Source of the DNA: Candidatus Nealsonbacteria bacterium
GTDB lineage: Bacteria; Patescibacteriota; Minisyncoccia; Minisyncoccales; JAGMDC01
Assembly: GCA_030612885.1 (NCBI GenBank)
Contig: JAUWMZ010000004.1
Span: forward strand, 17,631 to 81,630
Length of the DNA stretch: 64,000 bases
Direction of reading: 5' to 3'
Shown: one piece after another, positions 3,788 to 63,096 of the stretch
Numbering within the stretch: the first letter of the stretch is position 1
How the letters are laid out: each line of letters opens with the position of its first letter
Program-made: the position numbers and the translations under genes
Notes under the pieces: model-generated
The model's database searches: none
What the model was told of the DNA's origin: nothing
The model's input: the letters and a program-made list of their open reading frames with translations, nothing else

Positions 3788-5833
3788 TTATTTTTTGTAG
3801 TCGCACTCTTTATTTGAGCATTTGATTTTGCCTTTTTTTGTTTCTACTAAAAGAGAACCGCATTCAGGACATTTCTCATTAATTGGTTTGTCCCAAAGAG
3901 CAAAATCGCATTTTGGATATTGATTGCAGGCGTAAAATGTTTTTCCTTTTCTAGTTTTCTTCTCTATAATTTCTCCTTTGCCGCATTTAGGACATTTGAT
4001 ATTCAAAGACGGTCTTTCCAATGGTTTAGTGTATCTGCATTTTGGAAAGCTAGAGCAAGCGTAAAATTTTCCATATCTGCTCATTTTTTTTACCAAAGGC
4101 GAACCGCATTTAGGACATTTTTCATTTGTTTTTTCTTCAGCAATTTCTTTTTTAGCTATTTCTTTTTCCTTTACTTTTAAATTTTCTTCAAAAGGCTGAT
4201 AAAATTCTTTTATTACCGAAATCCATTTTCTTTTTCCTTCAGATATTTCATCTAAATCCTTTTCCATTTCCGCTGTAAATTTCATATCTACAATTTTAGG
4301 AAAATGTTTAACCAACAAATCATTAACGATGATTCCTATTTCTGTCGGCTCAAATTTTTTATTTTCATTTTTTTGAACATAATTTCTTTCCTGAATTGTA
4401 GAAATTGTAGGCGCATAAGTTGAAGGCCTGCCAATGCCGTTTTCTTCTAAAACTTTAATTAAGGTTGCCTCTGTATATCTGCCTGGCGGCTGGGTGAAAT
4501 GCTGTGAAGGAAGAAGTTTTAAGAGTTCTAATATCTCATTTATCTCAAGTACGGGCAGTTCGTTTTCTTCGTATTTAATGGAATATACCTTTAAGAATCC
4601 ATCAAATTTAAGTATCTGTCCGGTTGTTCTAAAGATATATTCTTTAGCGCTAATATCTACAGTAGTGGAGTCAAAGAGGGCTTGACTCATTTGACAAGCG
4701 ATAAATCTCCGCCAAATTAAATCATAAAGTCGAAGTTGGTTATCATCTAACTTAGCTTTTATCTCTAGTTTGTCAGGCTCTTTATCAGGATAAGCAGGTC
4801 TTATGGCTTCATGGGCTTCTTGAGCGCCTTTTGCTTTTGTTTTGTATTTCTTCAAAAACCCAGCCCAATATTCTTTTCCGTAATTATCAATGATAAATTT
4901 TCTTGCTCCAAACAAAGACATTTCAGATAGATTTAAAGAATCAGTTCTATGATAGGTAATAAGTCCTTTTTCATAGAGGCCCTGGGCAGTTCTCATTGTC
5001 ATTTTAGCGGGCCAGCGCAATCTTTTCCAGGATTCTTGCTGTAGAGTAGAGGTAGTAAAAGGCGGCAAAGGATTTCTTTTTATTTCTTTTTTTTCAATGT
5101 TTGAAATCTTGTATTCAGCTCCTTTTAAATCCTTAACAATCTTTTCCGTTTCTTTTTTTGTTTTAATTCCCAGTTTCGGAATTACTTTCCCATCTTTTTT
5201 AATAAGCTTTGCCAAGAATTCATTTTTCGCGTTGGTTTTGTGTGATTGAAGCTTTGCTTCAATCAGCCAATATTCTTCTGGCTTGAAATTTTTAATTTCT
5301 CTTTCCCGTTCCACTACCAGACGGACAGTTACCGATTGAACCCTTCCTGCAGAAAGTCCTCGGGCGACTTTTTTCCATAAAAGAGGGGAGAGTTTATAGC
5401 CAACCAAACGGTCTAAAATTCTTCTTGCTTGCTGAGCATTAACCAAATTTATGTCAATTTTTCTTGGATTTTTTAAGGCCTGCTCAATTGCTGATTTGGT
5501 AATTTCGTGAAAGACAATCCTTTGATACTTTTTACCATTTAAATTTAAAATTTGGCTTAGATGATAGGCGATTGCTTCTCCTTCTCTATCTTCATCAGTG
5601 GCCAAAATAAGCAGGTCTGTTTTTTGAGATTCTTTTTTAAGTAATGAAACTGTTTTTCTTGCTTTTAGAGGAATAACATATCTCGGCTTAAAATTTTTCT
5701 CTGTGTCTATTCCTAATTCACTTTTTGGCAAGTCGCGAATATGACCATAAGAAGATAGGACCTTGTATTTAGGTCCTAAAAAATTACTGATAGTCTTAGA
5801 TTTTGTAGGGCTTTCAACGATGACTAATTGCAT
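3788..5833 (-). CDS. topA: DNA topoisomerase I
   Basis: TOPRIM start MQLVIVESPTKSKTI, active-site region ITYHRTDS, C-terminal CxxC...CxxC zinc ribbons. Confidence 0.95.
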   Translation of the reverse strand: MQLVIVESPTKSKTISNFLGPKYKVLSSYGHIRDLPKSELGIDTEKNFKPRYVIPLKARKTVSLLKKESQKTDLLILATDEDREGEAIAYHLSQILNLNGKKYQRIVFHEITKSAIEQALKNPRKIDINLVNAQQARRILDRLVGYKLSPLLWKKVARGLSAGRVQSVTVRLVVEREREIKNFKPEEYWLIEAKLQSHKTNAKNEFLAKLIKKDGKVIPKLGIKTKKETEKIVKDLKGAEYKISNIEKKEIKRNPLPPFTTSTLQQESWKRLRWPAKMTMRTAQGLYEKGLITYHRTDSLNLSEMSLFGARKFIIDNYGKEYWAGFLKKYKTKAKGAQEAHEAIRPAYPDKEPDKLEIKAKLDDNQLRLYDLIWRRFIACQMSQALFDSTTVDISAKEYIFRTTGQILKFDGFLKVYSIKYEENELPVLEINEILELLKLLPSQHFTQPPGRYTEATLIKVLEENGIGRPSTYAPTISTIQERNYVQKNENKKFEPTEIGIIVNDLLVKHFPKIVDMKFTAEMEKDLDEISEGKRKWISVIKEFYQPFEENLKVKEKEIAKKEIAEEKTNEKCPKCGSPLVKKMSRYGKFYACSSFPKCRYTKPLERPSLNIKCPKCGKGEIIEKKTRKGKTFYACNQYPKCDFALWDKPINEKCPECGSLLVETKKGKIKCSNKECDYKK

Positions 5834-32442: not shown

Positions 32443-32904
32443 ATGCGTAAAAAAGTAAAAAAAAGAGAAATTTTGCCTGATTCTGTTTATGATAATATTA
32501 TGGTTTCCCAGTTTATTAATCAGGTAATGCGTAGAGGTAAAAAAACAACTGCCAGAAAGATTATTTATGGCACTTTTGATATTATTAAAGAAAAAACAAA
32601 GAAAGAACCTTTAGATGTTTTTGATTTAGCTATCCAAAATGCTTCTCCTTTACTTGAAGTAAAATCAAAAAGAATTGGAGGAGCTGTTTATCAAGTTCCC
32701 AGAGAGGTAAAAGGAGAAAGAAAAATAAGCTTGGCTATGCGCTGGATTATTTCTGCTGCCAAATCAAAAAAAGGAAAATCAATGAAAGAGAAGTTAGCTG
32801 AAGAATTAATTGCGGCCTCCAAAAACGAGGGGACAACTATCAAAAAGAAGAACGACACTCATCGTATGGCAGAGGCGAACCGCGCTTTTGCTCACTTTGC
32901 CTAA
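32443..32904 (+). CDS. rpsG: 30S ribosomal protein S7
   Basis: ILPDSVYDN..., [24 protein letters not shown]. Confidence 0.97.
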
Positions 32905-32906
32905 GA

Positions 32907-32990
32907 ATCATTTTAACATTCAATCATTTTAACATATTAACATAATTCAAATTCAGAATGTTAACATGTTAATATGTTTACATGATGGAA
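32907..32990 (+). repeat. hairpin spacer, TTAACAT/ATGTTAA word family
   Basis: aacatattaacat (32931-43) pairs perfectly with atgttaatatgtt (32966-78); shares a 21-nt core aattcaaattcagaatgttaa with 35303-35323. Confidence 0.75.
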
Positions 32991-33132
32991 ACCTTGGATT
33001 TTATTTTCTCTTTTATATTAGTATTACTTTTAATATACCTTTTATTAGTATCGATTTGGTAAAAATTTGTTTTGTTATTTAATAAAAGGTTAATTCATTG
33101 GTAAATAAATAAAAAACTTTTAACTTAAACAT

Positions 33133-35238: not shown

Positions 35239-35273
35239 TTTGATTTTTGTGGAGGAGTTTGCTAAAGTAAATA

Positions 35274-35350
35274 ATCATATTAACATACTAACATATTAAC
35301 AAAATTCAAATTCAGAATGTTAAAACGTTTGAATGTTAAAATGTTGAAAT
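35274..35350 (+). repeat. hairpin spacer, TTAACAT/ATGTTAA word family
   Basis: catattaacatactaacatattaac...gaatgttaaaacgtttgaatgttaaaatgttg. Confidence 0.75.
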
Positions 35351-35351
35351 A

Positions 35352-35642
35352 ATGACCTTAGATGAAATCAAAAATTTAATAGCATTAGATGGGGGAAAGT
35401 TTATTATTGTGGAAAATGGACAACCAGTGCTAATGATAATGAGCTTTAATGATTATAAAGAGATAATATGGAATTCTGAAAAAATTTCTTCCCAGCAATC
35501 AGATTCTAATTCTGAAAAAGAAATCCCAAAAGCTCAAGAAGTTCAAGGATTTAATTCAGAGAGCGATAACGAATATGCAGAGGTAAATGAGAGAACTCCC
35601 CAATCAGAAGAATCGTTAAAGATTGAGGATTTGCCGGTTTAG
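35352..35642 (+). CDS. orphan Phd/YefM-like antitoxin-domain protein with acidic tail
   Basis: GGKFIIVENGQPVLMIMSFNDYKEI resembles the Phd/YefM N-terminal domain; no toxin gene adjacent; inserted between fusA and tuf. Confidence 0.45.
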   Translation: MTLDEIKNLIALDGGKFIIVENGQPVLMIMSFNDYKEIIWNSEKISSQQSDSNSEKEIPKAQEVQGFNSESDNEYAEVNERTPQSEESLKIEDLPV

Positions 35643-35667
35643 AAACCCTTAATGAAAACCCTTGACC

Positions 35668-35695
35668 TTGACTTTTTTTTTGTTTTTAATAGAAT
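35668..35695 (+). promoter_or_regulatory. putative tuf promoter (TTGACT-16-TAGAAT)
   Basis: TTGACT 35668-35673, TAGAAT 35690-35695; places the following hairpin spacer in the tuf 5' UTR. Confidence 0.4.
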
Positions 35696-35699
35696 AAAT

Positions 35700-35786
35700 A
35701 ATATAATCTTATAACAACATACTAACGTATTAACATATTAACAAAAATTAGTGTTAAAATGTTAAAATGTTAAAATGTTAAAGTGA
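35700..35786 (+). repeat. hairpin spacer, TTAACAT/ATGTTAA word family
   Basis: caacatactaacgtattaacatattaac...gtgttaaaatgttaaaatgttaaaatgttaaag, ending 3 nt before the tuf ATG. Confidence 0.75.
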
Positions 35787-35789
35787 TTT

Positions 35790-36989
35790 ATGGCTGAGAA
35801 AGAAAAATTTGAAAGAGGAAAAACTCATCTTAATATTGGGACTATCGGTCACGTAGACCATGGTAAAACCACGCTTACAGCAGCTATTCTGCATGTTTTA
35901 AAGTTGAAAGGCTTTAAAGCATCGGAGAAAGCAGTAGAGCAGATTGATTCTGCTCCAGAAGAAAAAGCGCGTGGTTTAACTATTAATATTTCCCATTTAG
36001 AGTATGAAACAGAAAAGAGGCACTATGCGCATATTGATTGTCCTGGACACGCTGATTATATTAAAAATATGGTTACCGGTGCCGCGCAGATGGATGGAGC
36101 CATTTTGGTTGTTTCGGCTGCTGATGGTGTTATGCCTCAAACCAGAGAGCATATTTTGCTTGCTCGCCAAGTAGGATTATCTCATATAGTAGTATTTTTG
36201 AATAAATGTGATACCGTAGATGACCCTGAGATAATTGATTTAGTTGAGTCAGAAGTAAAAGAGCTTTTAAAAAAATATGAATTTCCAGGAGATGAAATTC
36301 CTGTTATTCGCGGTTCCGCTATTAAATCCCTTGATGCAAAGTCAGCTGATGATGAAGCAGCCAAACCAATTTTGGATTTAGCTAAAGCAGTAGATGATTA
36401 CTTTCCTGAACCAACTCGAGATATTGATAAACCATTTTTAATGGCTATTGAGGATGTTTTCTCTATTGCTGGAAGAGGAACTGTTGCTACTGGCAGGATT
36501 GAGCGAGGAATAGTTCATCCAAACGATGATGTAGAAATTGTTGGTTTTAAGCCTACCCAGAAAACAGTAGCAGTGAGCGTAGAAATGTTTAATAAGATAC
36601 TTGACGAAGGAAGAGCTGGTGATAATGTTGGAATTTTACTTCGCGGCCTTAAAAAAGAAGATGTGGAAAGAGGACAAGTTTTAGCAAATCCCGGCAGCAT
36701 TACTCCTCATACTGAATTTGACAGTGAAATTTATGTCCTGACCAAAGAAGAAGGTGGAAGACATTCTCCTTTCTTTGCCGGTTATAAGCCACAATTCTAT
36801 ATTCGAACGACTGATGTTACCGGAGATGTTGCCTTACCAGAAGGGACAGAGATGGTTATGCCCGGAGATACTGTTAATCTAAAAATTAAATTGATTGCTC
36901 CAATTGCTCTTGAAGAAAAACAAAGATTTGCTATCAGGGAAGGAGGTAAGACCGTAGGAGCAGGAGTAGTAACGAAGATAATTAAGTAA
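35790..36989 (+). CDS. tuf: elongation factor Tu
   Basis: [22 protein letters not shown], canonical EF-Tu throughout. Confidence 0.98.
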
Positions 36990-37117
36990 AATTTTCAATT
37001 TTCAATTTTTATTCAATTTTCAATTCTTTAATTTTCAATTAGAAATTAGAAATTAGAAATTGATTGAAAATTAGAAATTAGAAATTGAAAATTAATTCGT
37101 TGTTCTTTTGAGATAAG
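36990..37117 (+). repeat. hairpin spacer, ATTTTCAATT / AATTAGAAAT word family
   Basis: 5' half tandem attttcaatt units, 3' half tandem agaaatt / aattgaaaatt units. Confidence 0.8.
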
Positions 37118-37462: not shown

Positions 37463-37642
37463 CAACGAATTTACCAATCCTTTACGAATATACGAATATT
37501 TATATCATAAAACATGGTTTTTCTTTCTAAAACATTTATATTTTAGTAAAATTAATTAAGGGAAATAACCTACGGGTGTCGGGTTAACCCGACATTTTTT
37601 AATTCTATTCGTAAATTCGTATAAAATTTGTTATTCGTTGAT
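37463..37642 (+). repeat. long-range inverted repeat spacer, ACGAAT/ATTCGT word family, enclosing a terminator hairpin
   Basis: atcaacgaat...tacgaatatacgaata (5') versus tattcgtaaattcgtata...ttattcgttgat (3'); the 3' arm abuts the rplC ATG. Confidence 0.7.
37578..37600 (+). terminator. intrinsic terminator-like hairpin between rpsJ and rplC
   Basis: gtcgggttaacccgac (perfect palindrome) followed by attttttt. Confidence 0.6.
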
Positions 37643-37646
37643 TGTT

Positions 37647-38243
37647 ATGAAGTTTATCTTAGGAAAAAAATTAGAAATGTCTCAGTTTTTTAATGAAAAA
37701 GGAAAGGTTATTCCAGTAACCTTAATTGAAGCCGGACCTTGTTATGTCGCTCAAGTAAAGAATAAGGAAAAAGATAAATACGAAGCGGTTCAGCTTGGTT
37801 TTGAAAAAATACTTAAAAAGAAGAAAATAAAAAAAACAATGAAAGGAAAAGAATATAGATATTTAAGAGAGTTTAAAAATGGTAAAGAATACAAGATAGG
37901 GGACGAAATTAATGTTTCGCTTTTTCAAGAAGGAGATAAAGTAAAAATTTCTGGAATTTCTAAAGGAAAAGGATTTCAGGGGGCAGTGAAAAGATGGGGA
38001 TTTCATGGAAGAAATGCTACTCACGGAGTTAAGCATGAGCAAAGAACCCTGGGTTCAGTAGGAAGTGCTTATCCGGAAAGAGTAATCAAAGGAAAAAAAA
38101 TGCCCGGCAGAATGGGAGCCGAGAGAGTGACAGTTAAAAATTTAAAAATAGCGAAAGTTGATAAAGAAAATAACTTATTGGCAGTTGAAGGAGCAGTGCC
38201 AGGAAGACGCGGGACACTACTTGAAATACGTTCGGGAATATAG
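37647..38243 (+). CDS. rplC: 50S ribosomal protein L3
   Basis: Start moved to ATG 37647 (MKFILGKKLEM); SKGKGFQGAVKRWGF; last codons and TAG lie in a repeat-element terminus. Confidence 0.95.
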   Translation: MKFILGKKLEMSQFFNEKGKVIPVTLIEAGPCYVAQVKNKEKDKYEAVQLGFEKILKKKKIKKTMKGKEYRYLREFKNGKEYKIGDEINVSLFQEGDKVKISGISKGKGFQGAVKRWGFHGRNATHGVKHEQRTLGSVGSAYPERVIKGKKMPGRMGAERVTVKNLKIAKVDKENNLLAVEGAVPGRRGTLLEIRSGI

Positions 38244-38248
38244 GCAAT

Positions 38249-38396
38249 CGCTCGGAAAGTAATTTTTAGGAGACGCTCATTCGCTTCCAGCGAGCGAATT
38301 CGCTCAGTTCTCGGCAAAATTCGAGCACTCAAGATGTTGAGTGCTCGACCAAGCAATTTTGCCTCGAGGTGCTCCATAAAAATTACTTTCCTCGCT
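38249..38396. mobile_element. GC-rich ~148-nt multi-stem repeat element, copy A (MITE-like / structured RNA)
   Basis: About 95% identical to 58959-59108. 15-bp outer stem ggaaagtaattttta/taaaaattactttcc; hairpins attcgct/agcgaat and cgagcactcaa/ttgagtgctcg; ggcaaaatt/aattttgcc. Confidence 0.8.
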
Positions 38397-38481
38397 TAAA
38401 TATTTTTGTGAAACTTGTTGCCTCGCTTTTCAGAAAGATTAGAAAATAAAAAAAAATCGGCAACATTACAACATTATAACA

Positions 38482-39135
38482 ATGCCAACCATTCCAGTTT
38501 ACAATCAAAAAGGTGAAGAAACAGGAAAAACAGAATTACCTTCTGAGATATTTGAGGTTGCTTTTAGTCCTGATTTGGTTCATCAGGTTGTTGTTTCGCA
38601 AATGGCAAATCGAAGGCAGGTTAGCGCTCATACTAAAGACAGAAGTGAAGTGCGCGGAGGAGGCAAAAAACCCTGGCGGCAAAAAGGAACCGGAAGAGCA
38701 AGACATGGCTCTATCCGTTCACCTTTATGGAAGGGAGGAGGCGTAACATTTGGTCCGACTAAAGAGAGAAATTTTAAAAAAATAATTCCTAAAAAAATAA
38801 AAAGAAAAGCTCTTTTTATGGTTTTAAGCCAAAAGAAGAAAGATAATGAATTGGTTGTCTTAGATGAGTTGAAGATTGAGAAACCAGAGACAAAAATAAT
38901 GAAAGGAATAATCCAGAATCTGAAATCAAAAATTAAAAACATAAAAACAGAAAGTTTTCTAATCACTTTGCCAAAAATGGATAAGAATATCATTTTATCA
39001 ACCAGAAACATTCCTAAAATAGATACAATTCAAGCAAAAGAATTAAATTGTCTTGATATTTTAAATTATAAATACTTAATGCTTCCTAAAGAAGCAGTTG
39101 AAGTAATAAAAACTACGTTTTTAAAATCCCAATAA
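38482..39135 (+). CDS. rplD: 50S ribosomal protein L4
   Basis: VSAHTKDRSEVRGGGKKPWRQKGTGRARHGSIRSPLWKGGG. Confidence 0.96.
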   Translation: MPTIPVYNQKGEETGKTELPSEIFEVAFSPDLVHQVVVSQMANRRQVSAHTKDRSEVRGGGKKPWRQKGTGRARHGSIRSPLWKGGGVTFGPTKERNFKKIIPKKIKRKALFMVLSQKKKDNELVVLDELKIEKPETKIMKGIIQNLKSKIKNIKTESFLITLPKMDKNIILSTRNIPKIDTIQAKELNCLDILNYKYLMLPKEAVEVIKTTFLKSQ

Positions 39136-39263
39136 CCTATAATAATTTTCAATTTTCAATTTTCAATTTTCATTCAATTTTCAATTTAATAATTTTCAAT
39201 TAGAAATTAAAGAATTAGAAATTTATTAGAAATTAGAAATTAGAAATTAGAAATTTAAAACCT
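39136..39263 (+). repeat. hairpin spacer, ATTTTCAATT / AATTAGAAAT word family
   Basis: aattttcaattttcaattttcaattttcatt...attagaaattagaaattagaaattagaaattt. Confidence 0.8.
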
Positions 39264-42140: not shown

Positions 42141-42233
42141 TCCACGAATAAAATCACGAATAAAAGAATCACTAATTATCACGAATAATTATTAGTGAAT
42201 ATTCGCGATTAAAATTAGTGATTTATTAGTGGT
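42141..42233 (+). repeat. hairpin spacer, CACGAAT/CACTAAT versus ATTAGTG/ATTCGCG word family
   Basis: ccacgaataaaatcacgaataaaagaatcactaattatcacgaataa | ttattagtgaatattcgcgattaaaattagtgatttattagtgg. Confidence 0.75.
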
Positions 42234-42831: not shown

Positions 42832-43062
42832 ATGAAAAAAGAATTAAAAGGAACAGTTGTTTCTAATAAAATGTCAAAAACTATAGTAGTAGAAGTGGAA
42901 AGGATAAAAGTTCATCCTAAATACAAGAGAAGATATAAAGTACACAAAAAATACAAAGCCCACAATGAAAAGGGAGAGTTTAAGGTAGGAGACAAAGTAA
43001 TTATTGAAGAATGCCGGCCATTATCTAAAGAGAAGAAGTGGAGAGTTATAAAAAAGGTTTAA
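42832..43062 (+). CDS. rpsQ: 30S ribosomal protein S17
   Basis: [20 protein letters not shown]...HPKYKR...HNE...[14 protein letters not shown]. Confidence 0.94.
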
Positions 43063-43186
43063 AATTTTCAATTATTTAATTTTCAATTTTCATTAAATTT
43101 TCAATTATTTAATTTTCAATTAAATAAAAATTAGAAATTGAATCATTAGAAATTTAATAGAAATTAGAAATTAGAAATTTCACATT
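43063..43186 (+). repeat. hairpin spacer, ATTTTCAATT / AATTAGAAAT word family
   Basis: aattttcaattatttaattttcaattttcatt...attagaaattgaatcattagaaatttaatagaaattagaaattagaaattt. Confidence 0.8.
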
Positions 43187-43558: not shown

Positions 43559-43648
43559 CCACTAATATTTACTAATTTTAATCACGAATACTCACTAATA
43601 ATTTATTAGTGATAATTAGTAATTTTTATTCGCGATTTTATTAGCGGT
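43559..43648 (+). repeat. hairpin spacer, CACTAAT/CACGAAT word family
   Basis: ccactaatatttactaattttaatcacgaatactcactaataa | ttattagtgataattagtaatttttattcgcgattttattagcgg. Confidence 0.75.
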
Positions 43649-44535: not shown

Positions 44536-44721
44536 ATGGCGACAAAATCTCAAATTGAAAAATCAGAGAAAAAACCTAAGTTTAGTTCCCGAATTGTTCG
44601 GAGATGTTTTAGGTGTGGCAGAAAAAGAGGATATATGAGAAAATTTGGATTGTGTCGGATTTGTTTTCGGGAAATGGCAAACCAGGGCTTGATACCGGGA
44701 GTAAAAAAGTCGTCTTGGTAA
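44536..44721 (+). CDS. rpsN: 30S ribosomal protein S14, type Z (zinc-binding)
   Basis: 61 aa, CFRCGR...CRICFRE, ends KSSW. Confidence 0.95.
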
Positions 44722-44849
44722 AAATCCAAATTACAAAATCCAAATGTCAAATCAAATCCAAAATCCAAATGTCAAAAAAAGAGTTTTAGTTATTTGATAT
44801 TTAGTCATTTGACATTGAATTGACATTTGAGCTTTGACATTTGACATTC
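44722..44849. repeat. ~128-nt hairpin spacer, AAATCC/CAAATGTC versus GACATTTG word family; inverted copy of 49431-49556
   Basis: 44722-44780 is the exact reverse complement of 49498-49556 (59 nt); the rest matches apart from one 7-nt unit. Confidence 0.9.
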
Positions 44850-45861: not shown

Positions 45862-46034
45862 CGCTCGGGAATATAGTTTTTAGAAAATTTGCTCGGCAAC
45901 AAAGTTTCAAAGTACCGACCCTCAAAATCCCAGCGAGATTTTGGGGTCTAAGTTCTCAACGGCTGGCTTCTCGCTTCACTCGGAGACCATGCCCAGCCGC
46001 CTCCGAAGTTTACTTTGAAACTTATTGCCTCGCT
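45862..46034. mobile_element. GC-rich multi-stem repeat element, divergent copy C (same termini, different interior)
   Basis: Termini cgctcggg... and ...ttgcctcgct; stems aagtttcaaagta/tactttgaaactt, gaccctcaaaatc/gattttggggtc, ggctgg/cccagcc. Confidence 0.65.
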
Positions 46035-48783: not shown

Positions 48784-49482
48784 ATGAACAAGCCATTGAA
48801 TTTTACTTTCATAGGGAGATCTGGTTCAGGAAAAGGAACCCAGGCAAAACTTTTAATAAAGCACTTTGGAAATCTATTATATGTTTCCACTGGTGATTTA
48901 TTTAGAGATTTATCTAAAGCCAATACAGATACAAGCATAAGAGTTCAAAAAATAATAGAAGAAGGAGGTTTGCCGTTTGATGATTTAGCAGCTGCTTTAT
49001 GGATGCATAAACTTGCTTATAATCTTAAAGAAAATGAAGGATTTATTCTTGATGGCGCTCCTCGCAGAGTAAATGAAGCTCAAACATTAGACAGATATTT
49101 AGATTTTTTAGAAAGAAAAGAAACCTGTTTTAATTTGTTAATTGATATTTCCAGGCAGGAAGCATTTGACCGTTTATCAAAAAGACGAATTTGTAAGAAC
49201 TGTGGTCGTTTAATTCCTTGGGTTGGTGAGTTTAAAAAAATAAAAGTTTGCGACAAATGCGGAGGAGAATTAATTACTCGTGCTGATGATACGTCGGAAG
49301 CAATAAATAATAGATTAGATTATTACGAAGAGAGAGTAGCTCCAACTGTAAAATATTATGAAGAGCAAGACAGGTTGATAAAAATTAATGGCGAGCAATC
49401 TATAGAAGATGTTTTTAAAGAGATTCTAGAAAATGTCAAATGTCAAAGCTCAAATGTCAATTCAATGTCAAACGTCAAATGA
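48784..49482 (+). CDS. adk: adenylate kinase (zinc-lid type) with repeat-derived C-terminal tail
   Basis: GRSGSGKGTQAKLL, LDGAPRRVNEAQ, CKNCGR...CDKCGG; last ~17 codons (ENVKCQSSNVNSMSNVK) are encoded by the 49431-49556 repeat. Confidence 0.93.
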   Translation: MNKPLNFTFIGRSGSGKGTQAKLLIKHFGNLLYVSTGDLFRDLSKANTDTSIRVQKIIEEGGLPFDDLAAALWMHKLAYNLKENEGFILDGAPRRVNEAQTLDRYLDFLERKETCFNLLIDISRQEAFDRLSKRRICKNCGRLIPWVGEFKKIKVCDKCGGELITRADDTSEAINNRLDYYEERVAPTVKYYEEQDRLIKINGEQSIEDVFKEILENVKCQSSNVNSMSNVK

Positions 49483-49556
49483 CTAAATGTCAAATTATTT
49501 TTTTGACATTTGGATTTTGGATTTGATTTGACATTTGGATTTTGTAATTTGGATTT
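49431..49556. repeat. ~126-nt hairpin spacer, inverted copy of 44722-44849
   Basis: See 44722-44849; overlaps the adk 3' end and generates the spurious MDFGFDLTFGFCNLD N-terminus of the map ORF. Confidence 0.9.
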
Positions 49557-58307: not shown

Positions 58308-58973
58308 ATGCTTAGTTTATCTGCTAAAATTAGAAAAGAAGAAAAACCAAGTGTCCTTAGAAGTAAGGGTCTTTTGCCCGCGGTTCTATATGGTCCCAAG
58401 ATTAAAAACTTTTCTTTACAGATAGATGAGAAAGAATTTGAAAAAATTTTTAAAGAAGCAGGCGAGAGCTCATTGATTAAATTAAAAGTTGATGAAAATG
58501 AATTCTTGATTTTAATTCACGATTTCCAAAAAGACCCATTAAAAGGAAATTTTATCCATATTGATTTTTATCAACCTGCTCTTGACGAAGAGACCGAAGC
58601 TACCGTGCCTTTGGAGTTTATAGGTGAAGCACCGGCAGTGAAAGAATTAGCAGGAACATTAGTTAAAAATATTAAAGAATTAGAGGTAAAAGCTTTGCCT
58701 CAAAATCTTCCTCATGATATTAAAGTTAATGTGGAAAGTTTAAAAACCTTTGAAGACAGTATTACAGTAAAGGATTTAAAAATTCCAGAAGGAGTAAAAA
58801 TATCAAAAGAGCCGGAGGAAGTCATAGCTTTAGTTACTCCGCCAGAAAAGGTAGAGGAAGAATTAGAAAAGCCAGTTGAGGAAAAAGTAGAGGAGGTGGA
58901 GAAAGTAGGCGAGAAGGAAAAAGAGGAGAAGAAAGAGGAGGAAGGAAAAGAAGAAATCCGCTCGGAAAAGTAA
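58308..58973 (+). CDS. rplY: 50S ribosomal protein L25/Ctc-type with Glu/Lys-rich tail
   Basis: Start placed at ATG 58308 (MLSLSAKIRKEE...LRSKGLLPAVLYG); last 5 codons and stop lie inside repeat copy B. Confidence 0.88.
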   Translation: MLSLSAKIRKEEKPSVLRSKGLLPAVLYGPKIKNFSLQIDEKEFEKIFKEAGESSLIKLKVDENEFLILIHDFQKDPLKGNFIHIDFYQPALDEETEATVPLEFIGEAPAVKELAGTLVKNIKELEVKALPQNLPHDIKVNVESLKTFEDSITVKDLKIPEGVKISKEPEEVIALVTPPEKVEEELEKPVEEKVEEVEKVGEKEKEEKKEEEGKEEIRSEK

Positions 58974-59108
58974 TTTTTAGGAGACGCTCGTTCGCTTCCA
59001 GCGAGCGAACTCGCTCAGCTCTCGGCAAAATTCGAGCACTCAATGTTTTGAGTACTCGACCAAGCAATTTTGCCTCGAGGTGCTCCATAAAAACTACTTT
59101 TCCTCGCT
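58959..59108. mobile_element. GC-rich ~150-nt multi-stem repeat element, copy B
   Basis: Collinear with 38249-38396; differences include a compensatory A-T to G-C pair swap and paired 1-nt indels in the outer stem. Confidence 0.8.
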
Positions 59109-62253: not shown

Positions 62254-63066
62254 ATGACGGATAAAAAAGAAACCAAAAAGAAACAAAAAGAAGAAAAAGA
62301 AACTAAACCCGCCTCCGCTAAAGCTACGGCGGGCAAGGAAGAAAAAAAAGTTGAAGTAAAGAAAGTTCCTAAGAAGGAAACTGATTTTAAAATTGATACA
62401 GATAAAATGCTGGAAGCCGGAGTTCATTTTGGCCATCGGACTTCCCGACTCCATCCCAAAATGGAACCATATTTAGCTGGTGTCAAGAATACGGTTCATA
62501 TTATTGATTTAGAAAAAACAGCGGAAAAATTAAAAGAAGCCTTGAAATTCATTCAAGAAATTGTTTCTGAAAATAAGGTTTTGCTTTTAGTAGGGACAAA
62601 AATTCAGATTAAAGATTTAGTTGGGGAAACTGCTCAAGAATGTGAATTACCTTATGTTAACGAAAGATGGCTAGGCGGCACCCTGACTAATTTTGAAGTA
62701 ATTTCAAAAAGAGTTGGATACTTAAAAGAAATAGAGGAAAAGAAAGCAAGCGGAGCATGGGAAAAATACACAAAAAAGGAAAGGATTAAAATGAATAGGG
62801 AATATCAGAATTTAAAAACAAAATTTGAAGGCATTAAAACACTCTCCAGAGTTCCTGATGCTATGTTTGTTTTAGATATAAGAAAGGATGATTTAGCAGT
62901 GAAAGAAGCCAGAATGAAAGGGATAAAAGTAATTGCTGTTTGTGATACTAATACTGATCCAAGTTTAGTTGATTATCCTATTCCAGCAAATGATGACGCT
63001 ATCTCTTCGGTGAAGTATATTCTTGAAAAAGTTAAGGAAGCGATACTCAAAGCAAAGGCGAAATAA
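62254..63066 (+). CDS. rpsB: 30S ribosomal protein S2 with ~50-aa Lys-rich N-terminal extension
   Basis: MLEAGVHFGHRTSRLHPKM core; extension contains the KATAG hairpin insert. Confidence 0.93.
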   Translation: MTDKKETKKKQKEEKETKPASAKATAGKEEKKVEVKKVPKKETDFKIDTDKMLEAGVHFGHRTSRLHPKMEPYLAGVKNTVHIIDLEKTAEKLKEALKFIQEIVSENKVLLLVGTKIQIKDLVGETAQECELPYVNERWLGGTLTNFEVISKRVGYLKEIEEKKASGAWEKYTKKERIKMNREYQNLKTKFEGIKTLSRVPDAMFVLDIRKDDLAVKEARMKGIKVIAVCDTNTDPSLVDYPIPANDDAISSVKYILEKVKEAILKAKAK

Positions 63067-63070
63067 TTTA

Positions 63071-63096
63071 CTCCATAAAAATTATTTTTCCTCGCT
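63071..63096. repeat. 3'-terminal remnant of the GC-rich repeat element
   Basis: ctccataaaaattatttttcctcgct versus the copy A end ctccataaaaattactttcctcgct. Confidence 0.6.

Follow-up and report, generated by a model that had tools for sequence, protein, structure and literature searches.

Stacked copies of a structured repeat family at gene 3' ends in the ribosomal-protein operons of a Candidatus Nealsonbacteria bacterium

The S10/spc ribosomal-protein operons of a Candidatus Nealsonbacteria bacterium lie on the + strand at 35-49 kb of a 64,000-nt stretch of contig JAUWMZ010000004.1, the whole of which is called the window here. Within these operons, the open reading frame (ORF) of ribosomal protein L3 (rplC; Pfam Ribosomal_L3) occupies 37647-38243 and that of L4 (rplD) starts at 38482, leaving a spacer of 238 nt between them. 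As the initial annotation of this DNA had noted, the spacer holds a discrete GC-rich element: the 148 nt at 38249-38396 have 47.3% GC, compared with 33.4% for the window and 14-26% for neighbouring spacers that are free of elements. In order, the spacer consists of GCAAT, the 148-nt element, a 13-nt AT-rich tail, the segment GAAACTTGTTGCCTCGCT (38410-38427) and an A-rich run. The element belongs to a family of structured repeats, whose copies, fold, placement and turnover are described here. Relatives used for comparison were fetched loci of close L3 homologs (labelled L003, L004, L006, L250 and L251). The features at the rplC end and in the spacer are given below, with P1 to P4 denoting the helices of the element.

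38229..38243, + strand: A/C-type 5' stub, CGTTCGG with the initial 8 nt of the P1 5' strand (CGTTCGGGAATATAG), encoding R-S-G-I and TAG of L3
38244..38248, + strand: GCAAT, linking the stub to the full element, read from the sequence
38249..38396, + strand: complete A-type element (fold z = -8.1; 94% identical copy at 58959-59108, 95% identical copy in L004)
38249-38255, 38310-38314 and 38390-38396: boxes of this element, CGCTCGG, CTCGG and CCTCGCT
38256-38272 and 38372-38389: its P1 5' strand and P1 3' strand
38274-38307: its P2 hairpin region, with the loop CCAGCG
38313-38321 paired with 38355-38363: its P3 helix, enclosing P4 (38322-38347) and the ACCAAGC bulge (38348-38354)
38397..38409, + strand: 13-nt AT-rich tail TAAATATTTTTGT, with similar tails after other A-type copies
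38410..38427, + strand: B-type 3' stub, comprising the final 11 nt of the P1 3' strand and CCTCGCT, 17/18 identical to 46017-46034

Further copies and fragments occur elsewhere in the window, and more occur in relatives, so the search for additional copies that the initial annotation had proposed as a check gave a positive answer.

45862..45890, + strand: A/C-type 5' stub of 29 nt (CGCTCGGGAATATAGTTTTTAGAAAATTT), located 2 nt past the rplF stop codon; compare the 5' ends in L004 and L250
45891..46034, + strand: complete B-type element between rplF and rplR, with a degenerate hairpin in place of P4, a CCATGC bulge and P3 retained
58959..59108, + strand: second complete A-type element, 94% identical to 38249-38396
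63071..63096, + strand: 26-nt 3' stub of an A-type element (CTCCATAAAAATTATTTTTCCTCGCT), the P1 3' strand plus CCTCGCT, 4 nt past the stop codon of ORF 62254-63066

All of these copies and fragments are on the + strand and stand directly behind ribosomal-protein genes. The B-type element at 45891-46034 is about 92-96% identical to the B-type element of L003 outside P4, and its flanking genes rplF and rplR were identified by Pfam. The A-type copy at 58959-59108 begins with CGC TCG GAA AAG TAA, which encodes R-S-E-K-stop of L25/Ctc; the ORF ends at 58973, and Pfam confirmed its identity. Read by eye from its translation, ORF 62254-63066 is probably rpsB, and the equivalent (rpsB) spacer of locus L114 holds a full element.

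That repeat DNA fills the rplC-rplD spacer, with more than one copy or fragment stacked in it, was borne out. The match of the two outer segments to the ends of 45862-46034 was also reproduced: the 15-mer at 38229-38243 agrees with 45862-45876 at 14/15 positions and the 18-mer at 38410-38427 with 46017-46034 at 17/18, each pair being the sole two matches in the window, where shuffles expect 0.04 and 0.07. The assignment of these segments changes, however. The initial annotation had recognized two distinct element types, with the 15-mer as the 5' end of the outer type. A and B types in fact can be aligned from one end to the other and have a common architecture; they are variants of one family. 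The B-type element starts at GCTCGG (45891; L003:3834), and it is an A/C-type element that begins with the 15-mer: L250 has CGCTCGGGAAGCTAATTCTTGG and L004 has CGCTCGGGAGTATAGTTTTTAGG for comparison, and homologous 5' ends, full in L250 and partial in L004 and L251, are fused to rplC there. The segment 45862-46034 is therefore a composite, made of a 5' stub and a B-type element, and locus L162 has this composite too. The 18-nt 3' terminus is a true remnant, since L003 carries an intact B-type element at the orthologous site with the same downstream flank.

The proposal that one element was inserted in the remnant of another holds in part. Stacking is evident; a clean insertion is not, because the outer unit lacks about 140 nt, among them almost the entire B-type element, and their place is taken by GCAAT, the A-type element and the 13-nt tail. 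The order is an A/C-type 5' stub, an A-type copy with its tail, and a B-type 3' stub, which arose through replacement or through insertion plus deletion. The AT-rich tail probably belongs to the A-type element, and tails resembling it stand behind the A-type copies of L004 (TAAAATTATTCGT), L182 (TAAATTTATTCGT) and L095 (TAAACATATTGTC).

The earlier observation that the outer 5' terminus encodes the end of L3 is correct. The gene ends GAA ATA CGT TCG GGA ATA TAG (E-I-R-S-G-I-stop), and the 15-nt stub is coding. L3 now takes its final four codons and its stop codon from repeat DNA, and this outcome is recurrent in several lineages. L250 is a direct parallel: a complete element starts CGC TCG GGA AGC TAA inside rplC, and L3 ends EIRSGS-stop. 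Element-derived tails include RSGI-stop of L3 and RSEK-stop of L25 in the window, RSGS-stop of L3 in L250 and, from 5' stubs, RSGV-stop in L004 and RSE-stop in L251. In L162, the lysyl-tRNA synthetase (LysRS) gene ends CGC TCG GAA AAG TAA TTTTT, where an A-type stub supplies RSEK-stop and a complete B-type element comes next, the arrangement seen at 45862-46034. The comparison of L3 C-termini that had been suggested as a check gives ...LLEIRG-stop as the commonest ending among the 120 homolog matches listed, and the element-free L006 ends IRG-stop. The L3 endings EVRSIK and EVRSMK, considered as further element-derived tails, use AGA AGT codons and so are unrelated.

The state of the rplC-rplD junction varies among the relatives:

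L003: L3 97% identical, ending EIRG-stop; intact B-type element 2 nt past the stop codon, followed by the window's downstream flank AAAAAAAATCGGCA
L250: ending EIRSGS-stop; complete C-type element beginning inside rplC
L004: ending RSGV-stop; spacer with a 5' stub only
L251: ending RSE-stop; spacer with a 5' stub only, plus toxin-antitoxin genes
L006: ending IRG-stop; spacer without an element

L003 is the closest relative among the matches listed. In its rpsC-rplP spacer, L004 has an A-type copy with 95% identity to those of the window, whose own rpsC-rplP spacer is element-free. With L3 of L004 only 86% identical, conservation of the element is far above that of its host, and its site is a different one. 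Copies have thus spread to new sites and remained 94-95% identical. The contig of L002 ends 32 nt into an element and the locus of L069 starts inside a copy; contig breaks of this kind are expected of dispersed repeats. Copies are also built into one another. L182 has an A-type copy with a second P4-like hairpin in place of P2, the P4 loop carries insertions of about 75 nt in L140, L192 and L227 and an extra hairpin in L143, L167 and L173, and copies in L042, L022 and L045 are enclosed by a further outer stem. Nesting and stacking are habitual in the family, and copies that age are reduced to terminal stubs. Accessory genes were seen at such junctions as well: HicA/HicB and MNT/HEPN toxin-antitoxin genes lie between rplC and rplD at L251:2149-3485, and at L006:5517-8123 the interval from fusA to tuf holds NUDIX and YafQ/HigB-like genes. 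In these genomes, accessory genes seem to land at junctions of the conserved operon.

The unit of the family is about 145-160 nt long. Its order is (C)GCTCGG, P1 5' strand, P2 hairpin (C-CAGC-G loop), CTCG(G), P3 5' strand, P4, (G)ACCAWGC bulge, P3 3' strand, CYSCG, P1 3' strand and CCTCGC(T). P1 and P3 are variable in sequence, and P4 is a 26-nt hairpin of fixed stem sequence. The terminal 7-mers CGCTCGG and CCTCGCT are imperfect inverted repeats (5/7 complementary), and the subterminal P1 strands are long inverted repeats whose sequence differs between subfamilies. The B-type element of L003 has the same 11-bp hairpin as the window's A-type element, CGAGCACTCA..TGAGTGCTCG, in a different enclosing helix. 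In the window's B-type copy (45891-46034), L056 and L250, P4 is swapped for unrelated hairpins, and the bulge and P3 are kept.

Family members were found by descriptor search. A scan for the P4 hairpin in one genome per species returned at least 117 stretches, mostly in Patescibacteria, against a chance estimate of roughly 5-10. A metagenome scan was anchored on the P4 3' half and the bulge; about half of its 120 matches were chance occurrences in GC-rich coding DNA and were removed by requiring the P4 5' half. The final set comprised 53 copies, 44 of them non-redundant, ascertained via P4 sequence. The members are spread over Patescibacteria, with hosts in Parcubacteria, Saccharibacteria, Sungiibacteriota and other groups. 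Cores were aligned after anchor trimming; a whole-element covariance model was dropped because MAFFT misregisters the covarying P1 and P3 of A versus B types, and fixed windows were used since boundary calling by folding 280-nt segments was too noisy.

The fold described in the initial annotation was recovered by RNAfold, which gives a closing stem of 17-18 bp that has a single bulge, a small hairpin region, a helix of 9 bp and a perfect 11-bp hairpin for 38249-38396 (-67.3 kcal/mol, z = -8.1, 0/200 shuffles as stable). The complementary strand reaches -69.1 kcal/mol (z = -8.1). Covariation, another check proposed earlier, was tested on 35 cores in the anchor-trimmed alignment with the P3/P4 structure and 500 shuffles. 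The P3 pairs covary strongly: both-sided changes occur at 9/9 pairs, and cells with double changes number 120, compared with 43.8 +/- 6.1 in shuffles, none of which (0/500) came as high. The structure pairs 89.7% of cells versus 76.3% in shuffles, and the covariation score is 0.353 versus 0.05-0.14 for slid partner columns. The invariance of P4 was a selection criterion and carries no weight either way. P1 is unrelated between subfamilies, yet individual folds, compared by eye, give a 15-25-bp stem in each. Between the two A-type copies of the window, P2 differs by one A-T to G-C exchange for which both sides have changed. The structure is constrained.

Which strand carries the constrained fold was addressed through mismatches, wobble pairs and energies. 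P3 pairs are nearly all Watson-Crick, with about 2% G.U, a proportion unusual for RNA helices evolving under selection and so DNA-like. At the helix ends, CTCG boxes stand opposite CTCG; this arrangement forms a U.C/C.U 2x2 loop on the sense strand and places CGAG opposite CGAG on the complement, and TC/TC accounts for 30 of about 45 2x2 loops. Py-GA-Pu motifs are known in DNA, and tandem sheared G.A pairs are stable in RNA and DNA; SantaLucia and Turner are said to have described the CGAG/CGAG-type tandem sheared G.A motif as stable. Among the 44 non-redundant copies, the complement folds better in 37 and the sense strand in 6 (mean 6 kcal/mol, p < 1e-6), and the complement has 124 G.U pairs versus 62 on the sense strand (p = 6e-6). 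A measure independent of energy agrees: isolated mismatches flanked by Watson-Crick pairs are, on the sense strand, A.C in 59 cases and G.T in 32 (p = 0.006). The L25 copy has three one-sided changes, and on the sense strand each of them gives an A.C mismatch. The strand selected to fold is likely to be the complement of the mRNA. The element does fold on the sense strand, but the mismatch and wobble statistics favour the complementary strand, and the fold is probably not, in the main, one of the mRNA.

Copies are concentrated behind genes. Among the same 44 non-redundant copies, the gene upstream is on the same strand in 27 versus 7 cases (p = 0.0008), the gene downstream in 16 versus 16, and one copy lies between divergent genes. 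In about half of the sense cases, a stop codon stands 88-108 nt ahead of the P4 anchor, which puts the element's 5' end no more than about 15 nt from the stop codon; read directly, many copies show gaps of 1-8 nt between stop codon and element. Genes upstream include those for S10, S3, L3, L6, L15, L25, RNase Y, RNase J, DnaK, methionyl-tRNA synthetase (MetRS), LysRS, phosphoglycerate kinase (PGK) and GyrA, and, by reading of translations, probably S2 as well.

These results are probably best explained by a new family of non-autonomous, structure-defined intergenic repeats that is mobile in Patescibacteria and resembles repetitive extragenic palindromes (REP) and bacterial interspersed mosaic elements (BIME) or miniature inverted-repeat transposable elements (MITE). 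That the family spreads follows from copy identity above that of the host, variable occupancy and contig breaks. Copies accumulate at gene 3' ends, where they stack, nest, replace one another and decay to stubs; a 5' stub would be retained once it serves as the last codons and stop codon of a gene. What is recognized when copies spread would be the fold, probably on the DNA strand complementary to mRNA in a single-stranded or extruded state; on this strand the CTCG/CTCG boxes would form tandem G.A pairs. The mobilizing enzyme would act in trans. A trans-acting protein on folded DNA is most likely, given Watson-Crick helices of free sequence, invariant unpaired motifs and strand-specific G.A boxes. 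Within operon mRNAs, the elements would be passively co-transcribed. By analogy with REP, one may expect that so stable a hairpin (about -65 kcal/mol), placed right behind a stop codon, would block 3' exonucleases and possibly hinder terminating ribosomes.

Several observations weigh against this explanation. No target-site duplication was found at the flanks of at least nine copies, and no fixed target word at 5' flanks or junctions. No transposase, recombinase or autonomous relative was found in the 64-kb window and the loci of up to 8 kb, and no autonomous insertion sequence (IS) with the same ends turned up in the fetched loci, no search having been aimed at one. A precise pair of empty and filled sites was not recovered, the spacers of relatives being otherwise unalignable. 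The strand asymmetry is about 2:1 and arises partly from the CTCG boxes; P3 alone shows none (6 versus 9). The conservation of the plan across deep, streamlined lineages, with invariant loop, bulge and P4, would fit a host function too, and the orientation bias relative to the upstream gene is a prediction of mRNA-level function.

A functional role of this kind, in which the element is a cis-acting module of the sense mRNA that marks intercistronic processing or protects the upstream cistron, is a serious alternative, though a doubtful one. Besides the sense bias behind genes (27 versus 7), with sites right at stop codons, and the deep conservation, it gains from the nature of the upstream genes, which are core and presumably highly expressed (ribosomal proteins, DnaK, RNase J/Y, aminoacyl-tRNA synthetases, GyrA), and from the conserved unpaired CAGC loop and ACCAWGC bulge beside covarying helices. 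Candidate actors would be RNase III on the stacked P3-P4 of about 20 bp and RNase P or tRNA-end enzymes on P4, whose 11-13-bp stem with (G)ACCA may be likened to a tRNA acceptor/T-arm minihelix with discriminator and CCA. Transcription of P4 is certain at its sites in rRNA, RNase P RNA and tRNA spacers, all of them places where RNA is processed. The strand evidence points the other way: sense mismatches are A.C in 59 cases versus G.U in 32, the complement is better in 37/44 copies, and the conserved 2x2 loops are U.C/C.U in sense but stable tandem G.A in the complement. Covarying helices almost without G.U, and the exchange of P4 for other hairpins in 45891-46034, L056 and L250, also speak against an mRNA module, as do the roughly one fifth of copies that are antisense to their neighbours. 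Moreover, occupancy varies among close relatives, so that no junction depends on the element.

P4 also occurs outside the element. The hairpin (CGAGCACTCA-loop-TGAGTGCTCG) is found in large-subunit rRNA genes (L008:3691-3716 and L060:4586-4611), twice in one 16S rRNA gene (L079:4213-4236 and 5690-5715), in an RNase P RNA gene of 788 nt, compared with a model of 367 positions (L064:3052-3079), and in spacers beside tRNA genes (L023:1791-1817, L024:1869-1897 and L057:732-757). At the rRNA, RNase P RNA and tRNA-spacer sites, the flanks of P4 continue the helix. Solo multi-copy P4 hairpins are present in metagenome-assembled genomes outside the candidate phyla radiation (CPR), namely Nitrospiraceae UBA665 (7 contigs) and Spirochaetales Zod_Metabat.281 (4). 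Tentatively, the family and its P4 may belong to a hitherto unnoticed hairpin-into-hairpin system, which would be a new class of structure-targeting mobile DNA, or, alternatively, may serve as a superphylum-wide ligand of a conserved nucleic-acid-binding protein. In such a system, palindromes delimited by CGAG/CGAG would be read as folded single strands by a trans-acting protein and placed at the helix tips of other copies, of 16S/23S rRNA and RNase P RNA, and in tRNA spacers; its range would be Patescibacteria and beyond. Intervening sequences (IVS) and expansion hairpins of rRNA are similar in sitting at helix tips with a sporadic distribution, as P4 does in 16S, 23S and RNase P RNA of some genomes. 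IVS are known to be lineage-specific, whereas one 22-nt stem is shared here by rRNA, RNase P RNA, tRNA spacers and the repeats of several phyla. Five P4 matches on viral contigs were rejected as plain terminator-like hairpins or coding coincidences (RALSAMSAR), with no family member and no autonomous element among them.

That the elements are instead folded single-stranded recombination sites, attC- or Xer/dif-like, with P4 as the core on which a tyrosine or HUH enzyme would act on the ORF-complementary strand, is unlikely. Like attC, the family combines conserved structure with free sequence, sits directly 3' of ORFs and sometimes over the stop codon, folds better on the complement of the ORF and has imperfectly complementary boxes at both ends. 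P4 has invariant symmetric arms of 10-11 nt around a 4-6-nt centre that differs between copies, and the rplC-rplD hotspot has also received foreign toxin-antitoxin genes (L251). The match in folding strand is, however, a statistical assignment at about 2:1. The RYYYAAC/GTTRRRY cores of attC are absent, the ends being CGCTCGG and CCTCGCT, and neither an integrase, nor attI, nor a cassette array was seen; the neighbours are syntenic core ribosomal-protein genes of S10/spc. Active direct repeats inside an essential operon would, in addition, risk lethal deletions.

Transcription of the complementary strand, making the elements a gene family of small antisense or trans-acting structured RNAs, is quite improbable. 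The complement is indeed the better and more wobble-tolerant folder, with tandem G.A pairs typical of structured RNAs, and the four-helix plan with invariant loops resembles a functional RNA. Stubs and nested copies fit such genes poorly, and G.U pairs are few. A crude scan of the three full copies turned up no promoter-like or terminator-like signals of their own on the complement, and no terminator-like site or T-run hairpin on their sense strand either; this lack of promoter and terminator signals is weak evidence, CPR promoters being poorly known. Rfam at gathering score returned only two tRNAs for the window, the best E-value over the element being 2, to an unrelated miRNA model, and Rfam (E <= 10) and ARAGORN found no known RNA at the element.

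Two antisense ORFs initiated at ATG cross the A-type copies, at 38069-38377 (-) with 102 aa and 58834-59088 (-) with 84 aa, each with GAGGA, which is complementary to the CCTCGCT end of the element, ahead of it. They were rejected as genes because the helix sequences vary freely between subfamilies, unlike those of a conserved protein, and antisense ORFs across elements look like annotation artefacts. In L003, a 98-aa antisense gene has been called in the rplC-rplD spacer (4066-4362), downstream of that locus's element.

CIRCE, the controlling inverted repeat of chaperone expression, has the consensus TTAGCACTC-N9-GAGTGCTAA. That P4 is a CIRCE-like HrcA operator, and the elements dispersed regulatory sites, is scarcely credible, for although the P4 arms AGCACTC and GAGTGCT match 7/9 positions of each CIRCE arm, the GCACTC-GAGTGC spacing is 8 nt and not 9 in most of at least 118 matches, the window copies stand behind ribosomal-protein genes (rplC, rplY) and not before groES, dnaK or hrcA, and P4 is found within rRNA and RNase P RNA genes too.

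The family of mobile, structure-defined repeats favoured here resembles several known systems. With the REP/BIME of Enterobacteria and Pseudomonas it shares multi-copy extragenic imperfect palindromes at the 3' ends of operon genes, mosaics and probably co-transcription. It sits at 3' ends near stop codons, and work by Liang, Rudd and Deutscher in 2015 reportedly placed many REPs within about 15 nt of the stop codon; its mosaics are the stub-A-stub and stub-B arrangements of the window and those of L182, L140 and L143. The REP-mobilizing enzyme recognizes the folded single strand of the REP, which for this family is only proposed. REPs are single hairpins of about 20-40 nt with 5' GTAG, tied to RAYT (Y1 HUH) genes; the present family, in Patescibacteria, has a four-helix unit of 145-160 nt with its own boxes, loop and bulge, and neither a short palindrome nor GTAG is its hallmark. 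Rickettsia palindromic elements (RPE) are likewise palindromes, of about 100-150 nt, in a reduced genome, and become protein-coding; they insert in frame inside ORFs and give internal peptides, whereas here the first 9-15 nt supply a tail of 2-4 residues and a stop codon, and there is no sequence similarity.

The Correia elements of Neisseria, pneumococcal BOX (modular A-B-C) and RUP, and enterobacterial ERIC, all of them MITEs with side effects at the RNA level, are also short, non-coding, dispersed and folded. They are co-transcribed into mRNA, BOX is modular, and presence differs from strain to strain. Terminal inverted repeats of 26 bp and a TA duplication characterize Correia elements, and RUP and ERIC belong with IS families; for the present family, neither a target duplication nor an IS relative was seen. 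Like MITEs, the family is multi-copy with variable occupancy, but the target duplication of MITEs is missing from at least nine copies. It also differs from IS200/IS605-derived palindrome-associated transposable elements (PATE) in having no fixed 5' word and one global fold, not two end hairpins. The strand geometry is opposite to the IS200/IS605 model and matches integron attC bottom strands.

Full-text literature searches returned no description of this family, which does not prove that none exists. A tail and stop codon supplied by a repeat is in itself a known phenomenon, with precedents in RPE and REP. Less ordinary are the four-helix plan across a superphylum, the evidence for folding of the complementary strand and the shared P4 hairpin. 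Genomes of Patescibacteria (CPR) are streamlined and usually described as poor in repeats and mobile DNA. Here a family within their most conserved operons gives ribosomal proteins and tRNA synthetases new C-termini. It interrupts metagenome assemblies, so that the contiguity of metagenome-assembled genomes is affected; it also distorts annotation, through spurious antisense ORFs of 84-102 aa and altered gene ends, and may serve as a marker of strain-level variation. If confirmed, folding of the complement and the presence of P4 in rRNA and RNase P RNA would be new biology and would hint at an enzyme or binding protein for folded nucleic acid in organisms whose molecular biology is little known.

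Other repeats were encountered around the family. The inverted copies on one contig at L034/L053, considered as a possible autonomous relative, are a different repeat family of 243 nt. In the window, AT-rich short-period repeats fill nearly every spacer of the ribosomal cluster (32903-32994, 35269-35795, 36970-37091, 39131-39253, 42150-42224, 43051-43184, 43571-43648, 44720-44848 and 49430-49556). The word differs from spacer to spacer (AATTTTC, TTAACAT, GTCAAAT, ATTCGTA, TCACGAAT, TTAGTGA), and a block is often followed by its own reverse complement. The same junctions in relatives carry other words (L003:6325-6450 and spacers of L006). At L003:6325-6450, between rplB and rpsS, the repeat is a tandem of three units of about 44 nt (AAGAACCTCCGCTTTCAGCGAAGAACCTTGATTACTATGTAATT), each with a small hairpin, unrelated to the family.

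A 65-nt inverted repeat (44722-44786/49492-49556, 97% complementary) brackets a 4.7-kb block that includes rplF and rplR and begins upstream of the ORF at 44841. Between rpsJ and rplC in the S10 operon, a terminator-like hairpin lies at 37578-37600 (GTCGGGTTAACCCGAC, then T6). Finally, a 46-nt repeat (39373-39418/62300-62345, 83% identical) is in frame in the lysine/glutamate-rich N-terminal extensions of the L23 ORF and the putative S2 ORF, where it encodes ...KATAG(R/K)E... and contains CCCGC..GCGGG as an inverted repeat; this, too, may be a repeat that has become part of a coding sequence.

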